From Escherichia coli (GTDB taxonomy: Bacteria > Pseudomonadota > Gammaproteobacteria > Enterobacterales > Enterobacteriaceae), in the NCBI RefSeq assembly GCF_003018255.1, contig NZ_CP027440.1: a stretch of DNA of 64,000 bases; one strand, 5' to 3'. Position numbers: made by a program. Shown here in pieces: positions 3,001 to 6,000 of this stretch. Position 1 is the stretch's first letter, and each line of letters starts with the position of its first letter.

Positions 3001-6000
3001 TTTCATTGATGATGCGGGACCAGCCATCAACGCCCACCACCGGAACGATGCCGTTCTGCTTATCAGGGAAGGCGTAAATTTCTTTCGTCCACGGATTAAG
3101 GCCGTACTGGTTGGCGACGATCAACAATGCGATGAACTGCGCATCGCTGGCATCACCTTTAAATGCCGTCTGGCGAAGAGTGGTGATCAGTTCCTGTGGG
3201 TCGACAGAATCCATGCCGACACGTTCAGCCAGCTTCCCTGCCAGCGTTGCGAGTGCTGTACTCATCCGTTTTATACCTCTGAATCAATATCAACCTGATG
3301 GTGAGCAATGGTTTCAACCATGTACCGGATGTGTTCTGCCATGCGCTCCTGAAACTCAACATCGTCATCAAACGCACGGGTAATGGCTTTTTTGCTGGCC
3401 CCGTGGCGTTGCAAATGATCGATACATAGCGATTCAAACAGGTGCTGGGGCAGGCCTTTTTCCATGTTGTCTGCCAGTTCTGCCTCTTTCTCTTCACAGG
3501 CGATCTGCTGGTAGTGACGCGCCCAGCTCTGAGCCTCAAGACGATCCTGAATGTAATAAGCGTTCATGGCTGAACTCCTGAAAATGGCTGTGAAAATATC
3601 GCCCGCGAAATGCCAGGCTGATTAGGAAAACAGGAAAGGGGATTAGTGATTCAGGCCGTTACCGCGTCCGTCGAGAAAAACTTCCACGAGCAAATCACGG
3701 GTATAAGTGCGCTCGATGCCGCGATGCAGATATAGCCGTCCGCGTAAATTAGCTGATGCAGTCCAGGTACCATCTTTGTGTTTGACCAGCATTCCTGGCA
3801 TGACCGCACCTCGATTAACGGTCTGCGTTCCATAATGTTGATGAACCATAAAAACTCCTGCCCGTAAGCTGGGCTGCTGAACATATAGAGACTTCTGCGC
3901 GTATTCAGGCGGTGGATGGCCGCCGGTTGTCATAACTAAGCCGCCTCGTTGAAGCGACTGAGGTATGAGGTGTTGAGTTGATTTCAGCTGGTCACACCGA
4001 CGTTCACGCGTCCGTTTCACCCCTCGCACTCCCCGGAGCCTGCCGAAATTCAAGCTGCGGATCTAAGCGGTCATCGCAACGGTGAATCAGGCGGTTGCCG
4101 TATCGTTGTGTTGTTGCGACATGGTAATAATAGCTATTGCTATTGGTGGTATCAATACTTATTGCTATTGATTGATGTGTTTTGATATTAACTGTTTGAT
4201 AGCAAAAAGAATTAATTTTGTGACTTGCATCGCATAGCGATAACTGAAGGGAGGTTGTGGTGGTTTTTCGAACGGTTTGTGTGATGAGGGGAGGGGACAA
4301 AAGAAAACCCGGCACGGTGGCCGGGCTAGATCTTAAAGTATTTATCTTTTAGAGATGTAGATGCAAAATTTTTTGCCTTTGAAAATTTTTTGTCATCAGA
4401 AGAGCTTATGAACTCATCTTTTTTGTAGGGAACCGCTAATGCTGCATCACGTCTGCGAGGCAGCTTACTTACTTCCTCGCACTTTTTCATGATCAGTTAT
4501 CCTTTAATAACCTATACAGTTTTGTAGGGGTACATCCTGAGGATATTGTTAAGTTCGTAGCACGCCTTTTCCGCCCACCATCGTATAAACGAAAACCAGT
4601 AGTAGACGAATTTTCTGCGTCAAAAACTATAGACAGTATAACGTCCCCAGACTTTTTTTGCCATTCATATGTGCCGTTAGTTGGTTTTGTCATCTGTAGA
4701 CGCCAGTCAAGAACGCCATCACTTATAGCTGAGAGATCGTTTAGTACGTCTAGTACGGATTGATATCTTTCATTTGGATCTACATGAATGCATTTGTTTA
4801 CTATTGTTATCAATTTTTTATGTATGTGGGAAGGATACTCTTTTAATGGATAGGAGCCATTAATTATCGACTCTCTGAGTTGTTCAATCGTTCTAAATGC
4901 AGATCTTTCTCTTTCAAAATTATCATATCCAACACACATTCTATATATGGTTAATCCTGCCTGATATATGTCATATGTGAAATTATAATCATTTGTTGAT
5001 AAAGAAAAATATTCCGGTGGCACATGAAAATGATATCCAAACTCAGGCGCAGCTCTCGATTCCTCATTGACTAACTGAGACAATCCAAAGTCAGATAGCA
5101 TGGCCTCATTTCTGTTTGATATCATGATGTTATTAGGTTTTATATCAAAATGCATAAGACCTTTTGAGTGTATATGATAAAGCCCACTTAAAAATTGAAT
5201 AGAATACCGTATTATCTCCCTGCTCGTAAGATTAATCTTTTTTATTAATTGGTTTAGCGAACCATTATGATAAAATGGCATGGCTATATAGATATTGCTC
5301 TCACATTGAGCAGCATACTGAACTTGCACAATATTTGGATGTGCATGTTTATAGAGAAGCCTTGCTTCATTAAAGTAGTCGTCGTGGTTAGTGTTTTCTT
5401 TTTTTTCTATTTCTTTAATCACCAAGTCATGAGCTAGGTGTCTGTCATGAGCCAGATATACTTTTGAAAAACAACCCTGTTCTTCTAGATCACGAATCCA
5501 TTCGAATGCTACATCAGCTCTTTTGTATGGAGTCAGCATCCCCTTACCTCCGCAGATAGTGCAGCCAAAACAGCTTCATTTGTTTCAGTTGTAAAACCAG
5601 AATTATCGATTCCATTTATATTACGGTGTGACTTCAATATTTCTTTATACTCGATCTCTGTTAGGTTCAATGATGACTTCATACCAGATTTTCTAATGGT
5701 GTAATATCTTCTTACATCACTGCTTGAAAATGCTTCTTGAATAACAGCTTCTATATAAAGGCGGTCAATGCTAAGATTATCAGAGTTTGATTCAGTAACG
5801 CGTATAGCAGCTAATTCAACATTATATAAATTAAGAATGTCGAGGATGTTATTTCGCACATACTTTAATTTTTCTGGTGTGTCTAAGGTCGAAGGTATTT
5901 TAATAACATCAACACATTTGAGTGCAGACTCATCAGTGCAATATACAACAAAAGATGTAACTTTGGGCGCCGCCCTAACACCTAGTATTCTCATTTTTTA

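Follow-up and report, generated by a model that had tools for sequence, protein, structure and literature searches.

The locus at 3568-4325 in a stretch of 64,000 nucleotides of Escherichia coli DNA (64 kb, contig NZ_CP027440.1; hereafter the window) raises the question of what occupies the place of the antiterminator N in an early-left operon that departs from that of lambda. The first ORF downstream of the pL promoter, 136 aa in length (TTG at 4053 to the stop at 3643), does carry the arginine-rich stretch GVKRTRERR reported in a first-pass annotation, which likened it to N-family antiterminators. A different reading is proposed here: the region belongs to a DLP12-like lambdoid prophage that lacks N, of whose early-left (pL) operon it forms the promoter-proximal part, and the ORF consists of the gene kil together with the upstream pL leader, open in the kil frame by chance in this copy. 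This reading is given a probability of roughly 85%. The order on the minus strand is the terminator of the cI/defence operon, a conserved spacer, oL/pL, a leader of about 270 nt, kil (68 aa), gam (short), bet and exo, with the following features.

4296-4327, minus strand: intrinsic terminator closing the cI operon and the defence genes (position of rex in lambda), with an 8-bp stem, 6 GC pairs, then TTTTCTTTTG
4200-4305, minus strand: conserved block of about 100 nt, flanked by the terminator and oL, whose identity stays near 90% whatever the immunity type and the upstream gene
4128-4180, minus strand: oL operators, CAATAGCAAT-type repeats that match the oR repeats at 6786-6877
4127-4155, minus strand: pL promoter, TTGATA-17-TATTAT (-35/-10), the best promoter-like site in 1-7200, with 10/12 matches
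3850-4118, minus strand: pL leader (5' UTR), about 270 nt long and conserved whatever the immunity type
3997-4020, minus strand: arginine-rich codons GTG AAA CGG ACG CGT GAA CGT CGG, a near-palindromic CG-rich stretch with a weak hairpin of 4-6 bp
3643-3849, minus strand: kil of the Rac KilR/phi80 type, 68 aa, predicted to block cell division through FtsZ (PHROG 294, NF008465, identity to KilR)
3568-3642, minus strand: kil-gam spacer, 75 nt, a remnant of the N-terminal coding sequence of lambda GamL, with a TAA at 3624-3622 and a +1-nt insertion
3271-3567, minus strand: gam, short form only (GamS, 98 aa), matching Pfam PF06064 (E 1.3e-63 over 1-98 of 98) in a block 97% identical to lambda

The identities of the genes and the position of pL/oL are regarded as established; transcription from pL would start at about 4118. 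The prophage type with this early-left region is very common in E. coli and has no N antiterminator, the arrangement of cI, a defence gene slot, terminator, oL/pL, leader and kil-gam-bet-exo being present in 2230 of the 5426 complete E. coli genomes (41%). The closest RefSeq match of the prophage is integrated at icd; a satellite insertion in the capsid gene of that genome is absent from the window. The layout of cI operon, terminator and oL/pL parallels cI-rexAB-oL/pL of lambda, and the terminator is kept in all relatives, whichever gene precedes it. Within the adjoining conserved block, positions 4241-4229 form a perfect inverted repeat (ATCGC-TAT-GCGAT). The pL promoter itself sits within a block that differs between immunity types: the oL region shares 77-80% similarity with intergenic sequences from P22-like Salmonella phages and diverges completely in PhiR47_2, IdasGreatGrand and PhiR26_1, the cI genes of which differ in annotated length. 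In phages with differing operators, conservation restarts directly after the pL -10.

Comparison with lambda (pL-nutL-N-...-cIII-kil-gam-bet-exo) bears out the earlier description of a non-lambda-like early-left region. The match to lambda, at 97% identity, takes in gam-bet-exo and orf60a and ends at 3649, within the 3' end of lambda kil, and the lambda block kil-cIII-ea10-ral-sieB-N is missing; the prophage thus lacks N, nutL, ral, sieB, ea10 and cIII, and carries a non-homologous kil of the KilR type in place of that of lambda. GamL cannot be made; the start of lambda GamL lies beyond the homology breakpoint and the 1-nt insertion, seen in the alignment to lambda, shifts the frame of the GamL remnant. 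The first-pass annotation was accurate in these details: translation confirms that the lambda-like residues in frame upstream of GamS run into the TAA, the gap between gam and the ORF, put at about 75 bp, measures 75 nt, and only the short Gam is encoded, with a Gam domain at GamS length. Searches of the whole window with lambda N, cIII and lambda-type kil by tblastn returned nothing (all E > 0.5; best for N, E 0.69), in agreement with the reported lack of cIII. The CII-like protein of the prophage is of the YdaT type (PF06254), which may be the reason why cIII is dispensable here.

The C-terminal half of the ORF, said earlier to match nothing recognisable, is Kil. Residues 69-136 match PHROG 294 with E 1.3e-37, residues 1-68 of Kil covering profile positions 13-80 of 83, and NCBIfam NF008465 ('FtsZ inhibitor protein') with E 1.8e-17 (1-68 on 1-70 of 73); identity to Rac KilR is 36% (E 9e-13), the alignment running from residue 1 to 59-61. 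The score against NF008465 (63 bits) lies below the curated cut-off of that model (92 bits), which points to a sister subfamily rather than KilR itself. This is an already known gene: in the closest RefSeq genome, PGAP calls exactly the same 207-nt CDS (WP_000233576.1) under the product name 'phage encoded cell division inhibitor protein'. Its ATG at 3849 is preceded by cAGGAG with a 5-nt spacer, and its variable sites are almost all third codon positions (diversity at codon positions 1/2/3 of 0.002/0.001/0.049). The order kil-gam-bet-exo holds in the window and in relatives, kil adjoining the recombination genes in the early-left operon; this is the position of the Rac KilR/phi80-type Kil proteins, which are likewise small (about 70 aa). 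The full-length profile match and the operon position both fit the Kil/KilR group of cell-division inhibitors, and Rac KilR blocks FtsZ-dependent division (PMC5793797, PMC12482147). The protein is unrelated in sequence to the 47-aa Kil of lambda; the earlier statement that kil is lacking is correct for the lambda type, absent from the 64 kb by tblastn, and incorrect for the KilR type.

The upstream half behaves differently. Residues 1-68 of the ORF are the pL leader read in the kil frame, and their lack of conservation as coding sequence is regarded as established. Of 69 copies, 40 keep the frame open and 24 have an in-frame TAG, which IdasGreatGrand also carries; the commonest leader haplotype has a stop codon, and relatives have frameshifting indels of +1, +7 and +35 nt. 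Codon periodicity is absent across 65 distinct relatives, with diversities at codon positions 1/2/3 of 0.024/0.015/0.033 against those given above for kil. Family searches with residues 1-68 (Pfam, PHROG and NCBIfam, the first two to E ≤ 10) found no match, and the similarity to the arginine-rich motif of lambda N extends over 9 residues with E 1.5. Shuffled sequence folds as well as the hairpin formed by the arginine codons (z -0.35). An in-frame CAG/TAG polymorphism at 3960-3958 lies downstream of these codons; a conserved, translated arginine-rich motif was not found, the frame beyond the stretch being broken by a stop in 24 of 69 copies and by frameshifts in further copies. Very probably the arginine-rich stretch is CG-rich leader read as codons and not an RNA-binding motif of the N type, and the leader is presumably untranslated. 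An N-like protein was rejected on the family searches, the comparison with lambda N and the population genetics, and the proposal of an N-like antiterminator is not supported: the conserved half of the ORF is Kil, and the arginine-rich half has no family match, no periodicity, and stops and frameshifts. The earlier annotation had named as refutation a homology of the ORF to a non-regulatory protein together with a canonical N elsewhere; the former was found, the latter was not found in the window.

Other means of antitermination were searched for. Scans for boxA, mismatches allowed, were empty in the leaders of pL and pR, the window as a whole has no more boxA-like matches than chance would give, and the cro-cII gap is only 24 nt; a nut site was rejected, in line with the first reading of the sequence, which had found no clear boxA/boxB. 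Neither homology to an N family nor a nut site downstream of pL and pR was found. A scan of 1-12000 against Rfam gave no family in the leader at E ≤ 1 and only a chance rliD match elsewhere, which disposes of a known RNA family there. For the put RNA of HK022 and HK639, a two-stem RNA of about 70 nt that follows pL and has the conserved core GTCGAACGGCGCGAC..GGCGGGTTCAGGATGAACGGCAAT, a covariance model (R1) was built from 7 put sequences and run with filters off over the whole window; its best match scored 9.7 bits (E 0.18) at 22750, with nothing in 3850-4120, and a put element in the leader was rejected. Comparison of the window with itself by BLAST, in search of an element shared by the pL and pR leaders, returned the operator repeats only, and a covariance model of the leader hairpin (R2, described below) found a single copy, and a paired element was also rejected. 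N, a nut site and a put RNA of the HK022/HK639 type are thus absent from the window, and one of the commonest prophage early regions of E. coli has none of the three. This poses a testable question about the control of delayed-early transcription and of the expression of toxic Kil.

The leader itself is under some constraint, being about half as diverse (0.025) as third codon positions (0.044-0.053), and shows no periodicity. It is found in 2230 of the 5426 E. coli genomes and is unannotated in all of the 40 matches listed. A globally structured leader was rejected on the folding energies relative to shuffled sequence (z +0.68 for the whole, z +0.99 for the core) and on RNAalifold of 39 leader variants, which gave no compensatory pairs outside a hairpin homologous to lambda. 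The C/G ratio is 1.2-1.75 at 4125-4036 and 4020-3856, and the O157-type variant has other sequence in place of the first 36 nt. The structured part with strong covariation spans 3968-3908, next to a short ORF.

3930-3968, minus strand: conserved RNA helix with the core hairpin 3959-3939, AGUCGCUUC-AAC-GAGGCGGCU, z -3.9, with covariation
3908-3924, minus strand: second hairpin, GGCGG-CCAUCCA-CCGCC, folded from the short ORF's Gly-Gly-His-Pro-Pro codons
3850-3933, minus strand: short upstream ORF, MTTGGHPPP..., in the cIII slot, in frame with kil in this lineage only

None of 200 shuffled sequences folded as well as the first helix, in which 97.9% of cells are paired as against 28-54% in slid controls, and changes on both sides occur at four pairs, the observed score being reached by 0 of 500 shuffles. 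Its outer UCAUA/UAUGA helix buries the AUG at 3933-3931. R2, built from 27 hairpin variants, matches lambda at 33526-33474 (15.6 bits, E 0.01-0.04), HK022 (22 bits), HK639 (63), phi80 (59) and HK225 (95), and on inspection the CATACC 5' flank and the GTTATG 3' flank are identical to those of lambda. These similarities identify the helix as a homolog of the hairpin, terminator-like in form, that precedes lambda cIII (33512-33493, presumably tL2b), and show that this hairpin is conserved and covaries in many early-left operons of the lambdoid group. While the hairpin with its flanks is retained, the U-tract has decayed to UUAGUUAUG: in lambda the stem is followed by TTTTTCG and the site is flagged as terminator-like, whereas the window has TTAGTTATG there and is not flagged, lacking the U-tract of an intrinsic terminator. 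The second hairpin has one compensatory variant (GGCGC/GCGCC), is followed in some lineages by a T-run that makes it a true terminator, and coincides in part with an annotated terminator of HK639.

These features suggest how the operon may work. CI would repress pL, and toxic Kil would be the first product after induction; the long, largely unstructured, C-rich leader, together with the AUG-burying hairpin, would damp or gate its expression, most likely through Rho-dependent attenuation, through translational control, or through the two combined, in the manner of Rac kilR. Rac kilR is silenced by Rho/NusG (PMC5793797), and its 5' UTR contains an sRNA, KilS (PMC8175672). In both prophages a toxic kil gene is preceded by a long non-coding stretch, which by analogy makes Rho-dependent silencing plausible here. 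Read side by side, the leader has no sequence similarity to KilS, and a KilS-like sRNA was rejected; the prophage sRNAs of recent papers (svsR, Pas, PreS) are all at other loci. Transcription would reach gam-bet-exo without antitermination, because this lineage is without the strong terminator that phi80, HK225 and further relatives have ahead of the hairpin, and because the U-tract is decayed. Beyond exo, and before xis/int, there remain a lambda terminator-like hairpin homolog at 1742-1720, which we take to be that of tL3, and a good terminator-like site at 1147-1129, so that a read-through mechanism may still be needed.

It is conceivable, though rather unlikely, that the 150 nt at 4118-3969, carried by 41% of complete E. 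coli genomes and matching no Rfam family, put RNA or nut site, represent a new cis-acting element controlling elongation in N-less lambdoid prophages, either an antiterminator or a Rho-dependent gate on toxic kil. The narrower proposal of a processive antitermination RNA, acting in the role of put or of nut with N past the tL3-like and later terminators, is quite unlikely. The segment lies just after pL, where lambda has nutL, HK022/HK639 putL and phi80/HK225 the boxA-like TGCTTTTTAACAA, and its conservation at about half the third-position diversity is independent of immunity type; there are terminator-like sites downstream for it to overcome. HK022 and HK639 are lambdoid phages that also lack N and have conserved non-coding sequence directly after pL, and HK639 shares the layout of the cI/cro/CII-like region and the KilR-type kil, with a single annotated put-like RNA, in the left operon. 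However, unlike put, the leader core here is not detectably structured and is unmatched by the put model; it folds no better than shuffled sequence, has no compensatory pairs outside the lambda-homologous hairpin, is replaced over its first 36 nt in the O157-type variant, and has no second copy in the pR operon.

There is likewise only a small chance that the hairpin and the MTTGGHPPP ORF constitute a leader-peptide attenuator, in which EF-P-sensitive stalling at Pro-Pro-Pro decides between hairpin 2 and Rho loading and so tunes kil along with the genes behind it. The covarying helix buries the AUG at 3933 together with the GAG of a weak Shine-Dalgarno sequence, the first nine codons are conserved across lineages with many versions ending in ..EVLY*, hairpin 2 is made of Gly-Gly and Pro-Pro codons, and in the Klebsiella phage KO-TP1 the stop of the short ORF overlaps the next start as ATGA. 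The arrangement recalls mgtA and mgtCBR, which have proline-codon leaders. However, indels of -1 and -2 nt occur right after the AUG in several relatives (-1/-2/+3 nt near the start overall), so that the hairpins persist in copies where the peptide is lost. Neither the length nor the frame of the tail is constrained, the ORF comprising 16-133 codons elsewhere in a survey of peptides of relatives, and the changes in its 28 codons are mostly non-synonymous, in addition to frameshifts. The indels by the AUG and the unconstrained tail also weaken the case for a conserved micro-protein. At the corresponding spot lambda has only a 3-codon ORF, and conservation at the RNA level alone can explain the pattern.

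A genuine fusion protein started at GTG 4020 or TTG 4053, with an N-like arginine-rich head on a Kil body, or alternatively a 20-aa arginine-rich peptide binding the adjacent hairpin, is very improbable and already largely refuted by the population data: KRTRERR does resemble TRRRERR of lambda N, GGAG precedes the GTG by 7 nt, the GTG is ATG in one leader variant (five copies), 40 of 69 copies are open and a small hairpin, GACG-CGUGAA-CGUC, overlaps the arginine codons, but the match to N is the 9-residue one, PHROG and Pfam are empty, the commonest haplotype has a stop and other copies frameshifts, diversity is flat over codon positions, the hairpin is as stable as shuffled sequence, boxA is absent, and the fusion is not called by PGAP in the closest RefSeq genome, the leader being unannotated in the 40 E. 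coli matches listed.

The reading of the ORF as kil with a leader open by chance also bears on gene calling, since an in-frame open leader can mislead ORF callers and readers. Public phage records give kil lengths of 68, 96, 125, 128 and 139 aa, with the longer start used by some gene callers (Perceval, 139 aa; PhiR26_1, 125 aa), and the population data set the length at 68 aa. Against the main reading, the GTG at 4020 with GGAG 7 nt upstream could start a 125-aa product in this copy and a 20-aa product where the TAG is present.

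The first 9.4 kb of the window form the early region of a lambdoid prophage, whose early-left operon is encoded on the minus strand. Family assignments of its genes were made using Pfam and PHROGs, and the layout is as follows:

1803-2483, minus strand, exo
2480-3265, minus strand, bet
3271-3567, minus strand, gam
3643-4053, minus strand, the 136-aa ORF of the first-pass annotation
4054-4325, non-coding stretch
4493-5539, minus strand, eukaryotic-type Ser/Thr kinase (PF00069, E 1e-46; PHROG 2361)
5533-5994, minus strand, RuvC-like protein (PHROG 3875)
6075-6803, cI
6872-7105, plus strand, cro
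7130-7675, plus strand, YdaT-type CII-like gene (PF06254, E 2.6e-29; PHROG 163 'CII-like')
plus strand of the early region, O- and P-like genes

The region truly departs from lambda, yet in an ordinary way that existing annotation already covers: a long pL leader precedes a KilR-type kil, in an N-less prophage lineage that is very common.

Homology to lambda (96.9%) extends over window 1455-3649 (lambda 31000-33193) and ends within the 3' end of lambda kil; the start of lambda GamL lies past this end point. The gam product (98 aa) matches the Gam domain over its full length. The window carries one additional base upstream of gam (GCCATTTTCAGG in the window vs GCTATTTCAGG in lambda) and the frame 5' of the start is closed by TAA at 3624-3622, bearing out the earlier reading that long Gam is not encoded; the gap to the ORF, estimated there at ~75 bp, measures 75 nt. 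Searches for lambda N, cIII and Kil by tblastn over all 64 kb returned nothing better than E 0.5, so that the lack of lambda N stands, while the reported lack of kil and cIII holds for the lambda versions but not for kil as such. Residues 69-136 of the ORF, in the part earlier said to match nothing, match PHROG 294 (E 1.3e-37), NCBIfam NF008465 'FtsZ inhibitor protein' (E 1.8e-17, under the curated cut-off of the model) and K-12 KilR (36% identity, E 9e-13), and are identified by homology as Kil of the Rac KilR/phi80 type. The gene starts at ATG 3849, with cAGGAG lying 5 nt upstream, and PGAP annotates exactly the same 207-nt kil (WP_000233576.1, 'phage encoded cell division inhibitor protein'). 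Phage records variously give it as 68 aa (4A7, PhiR30_1), 96 aa (IdasGreatGrand), 125 aa (PhiR26_1), 128 aa (PhiR47_2) or 139 aa (Perceval), so the open upstream frame misleads easily.

pL and oL could be located. The pL candidate, TTGATA-17-TATTAT (4155-4127, minus strand), is the best sigma-70-like site in 1-7200 and is embedded in CAATAGCAAT-type repeats, which also occur at oR (6786-6877) and are similar to intergenic DNA of P22-like Salmonella phages. A block at about 4210-4120 is swapped in PhiR47_2, IdasGreatGrand and PhiR26_1, whose cI genes differ in annotated length, and identity to the window returns immediately 3' of the -10 element. Upstream of pL, a good intrinsic terminator (4327-4306) marks the end of the cI operon; this placement puts the ORF in the 'N position', as originally proposed, and there the window has a ~270-nt leader with kil after it. 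Between this terminator and oL, a ~100-nt block (4200-4305, minus strand) keeps ~90% conservation between phages whose immunity regions and upstream genes differ; a perfect inverted repeat, ATCGC-TAT-GCGAT (4241-4229), lies within it, and no ORF, promoter or RNA family accounting for the conservation was found.

Diversity in the leader is 0.025, about half that at neighbouring third codon positions (0.044-0.053), and C-over-G tracts cover 4125-4036 and 4020-3856. Both features are compatible with an untranslated leader that may load Rho. Silencing by Rho/NusG is known for kilR of Rac (PMC5793797), and in K-12 the kilR 5' UTR carries an annotated sRNA, KilS (PMC8175672).

A structured antitermination RNA in the leader was also considered. 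Since N-less lambdoids such as HK022 and HK639 are known to use put RNA (PMC9378689, PMC12315714), a put covariance model was built from HK022 putL and putR, HK639, UPF_BP1, phiEt88, CobraSix and S9-5. With filters off, its best hit in the whole window (9.7 bits, E 0.18) fell at an unrelated place, with none in the leader, and no second copy of the leader was found in the pR operon. Folding was no better than that of shuffles (z +0.68 for the whole leader, +0.99 for the 5' core), 39 leader variants carry only single wobble-compatible changes, and the O157-type variant has the first 36 nt of the leader replaced. These results make a put-like structured RNA in the 5' leader improbable. Rfam (E ≤ 1) gave no match in the early region, and boxA scans found no site in either early leader, with totals at or below chance, in agreement with the first inspection, which saw no clear nut site. 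N, nut and put are absent.

The proposal that the ORF encodes an N-like arginine-rich antiterminator is rejected. Its upstream 68 codons were aligned between the window and six phages, and then across 65 distinct loci homologous to it, drawn from phage records and viral contigs. At codon positions 1/2/3 their diversity is 0.024/0.015/0.033, without the coding periodicity seen in kil (0.0018/0.0014/0.049) and bet (0.006/0.002/0.053). In the commonest haplotype TAG replaces CAG at 3960-3958 (24 of 69 loci, weighted by copies), and other loci carry indels of +1, +7 or +35 nt. No PHROG or Pfam family was matched even at E ≤ 10, and the likeness to the lambda N motif amounts to nine residues (E 1.5). 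The arginine codons fall within a near-palindromic CG-rich stretch, ACGGACGCGTGAACGTCGGT, with hairpin stability at the shuffled level (z -0.35). The upstream half is thus non-coding.

Several distinct leader modules circulate at this position. A pL leader common to phi80, HK225 and Klebsiella phage KO-TP1, different from that of the window, contains TGCTTTTTAACAA, a 12/13 match to the rrn boxA:

2270-2350 of L009 (phi80), boxA-like pL leader
1745-1830 of L008 (HK225), boxA-like pL leader
830-910 of L102 (KO-TP1), boxA-like pL leader

HK639 (L099, 5940-6000) has the first ~50 nt of this leader, followed by a put-like RNA. The phi80 record labels a 98-aa gene 'N' which lacks the arginine-rich motif. 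On the right side, the CII-position gene (7130-7675) encodes a YdaT-domain protein rather than lambda CII, and lies only 24 nt from cro, leaving no room for a tR1/nutR-type region; both fit the absence of cIII and N.

The leader does contain one RNA structure, a hairpin that covaries and has a homologue in lambda. It belongs to a 60-nt island (3968-3908) that is conserved in HK225 (97%), phi80 (85%), Enterobacter phages and KO-TP1, and that folds with z -3.9 (0/200 shuffles as good):

3959-3939, minus strand, hairpin 1, AGUCGCUUC-AAC-GAGGCGGCU
around hairpin 1, outer helix UCAUA/UAUGA, burying AUG 3933-3931
3924-3908, minus strand, hairpin 2, GGCGG-CCAUCCA-CCGCC

In pattern scans of viral contigs, hairpin 1 occurred with seven or more different stem sequences. 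Among 27 distinct variants of the element, 97.9% of cells pair (28-54% with slid partners), four pairs are changed on both sides (29 cells), and the covariation score of 0.222 (0.03-0.05 in slid controls) was reached by 0/500 shuffles. Hairpin 2 shows a compensatory change, GGCGC/GCGCC, in one variant, and with a T-run forms a true terminator in some lineages. The corresponding covariance model finds one copy in the window and others in HK225 (95 bits), HK639 (63 bits, between two annotated terminators), phi80 (59 bits), HK022 (22 bits) and lambda (15.6 bits). The lambda match, CATACCAATAACGCTTCACTCGAGGCGTTTTTCGTTATG (33526-33474), lies directly 5' of the cIII ribosome-binding site, was flagged by the terminator scan and is presumably tL2b. 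The adjacent tL2a is a confirmed early-left terminator (bioRxiv 10.1101/2024.10.31.621285). The window keeps this hairpin with its CATACC and GTTATG flanks, whereas the U-tract following it in lambda has decayed to UUAGUUAUG. A strong terminator directly 5' of the element, present in 45 of 97 distinct related loci, is absent in the window type.

From AUG 3933, in the cIII slot, begins an ORF reading MTTGGHPPP, which in other lineages has 16-133 codons with unrelated tails (often ..EVLY*) and is in frame with kil only in the window type. Several relatives carry -1 or -2-nt deletions just 3' of the AUG and the corresponding lambda ORF has just 3 codons, so the RNA is conserved and the peptide not reliably so; a leader-peptide role is no more than possible.

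CI would repress pL; on induction, transcripts would begin near 4118 and run through a leader apparently free of efficient intrinsic terminators, so that kil-gam-bet-exo could be expressed without N, while the leader and its AUG-burying hairpin may moderate Kil expression. A terminator-like hairpin 3' of exo in the pL operon (1742-1720, minus strand) is the homologue of lambda 31287-31265, which we take to be tL3, and a second good site lies at 1147-1129 (minus strand). An N-less phage would have to get past both between pL and xis/int, and the remaining interest lies in the conserved 5' leader and in how the lineage copes without a recognised early antitermination system.

Of 5426 complete E. 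coli genomes, 2230 carry the leader (3850-4125), with 95-99% identity in nearly every copy, and none of the 40 matches listed has an annotated feature under it. The main difference among relatives is the content of the slot between cI and the terminator: the kinase in the window, SIR2 in an O157:H7 strain, GevAT in PhiR47_2, and elsewhere ASCH, a lipoprotein or further genes. In the window, a 54-aa ORF, the kinase and the RuvC-like gene occupy the position of lambda rexAB. The slot (4326-5994, minus strand), whose genes differ between otherwise near-identical relatives, has conserved sequence on both borders and resembles an exchange site for defence genes.

Among public sequences, E. coli isolate 07-4299 (NZ_CP027462.1) is nearest, at 99.99% identity over window 1-10125. 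The prophage there lies at icd, has a DLP12-type right arm (emrE, ybcK-ybcO, rusA, quuD, essD/rrrD) and has no N gene annotated throughout. Its major capsid gene is interrupted by a 10.4-kb element (22507-32865 of the locus) that encodes an integrase, a primase, an Icd-like protein and SSB, has capsid and decoration genes of its own, and looks like a phage satellite; the window capsid gene is uninterrupted, with the empty site at 26272-26281. The O-like replication gene of the window contains an iteron-like array of CCTGATTCGGGTAAAC-type units (8114-8227), which matches Rfam rliD at chance level and is probably the replication origin.
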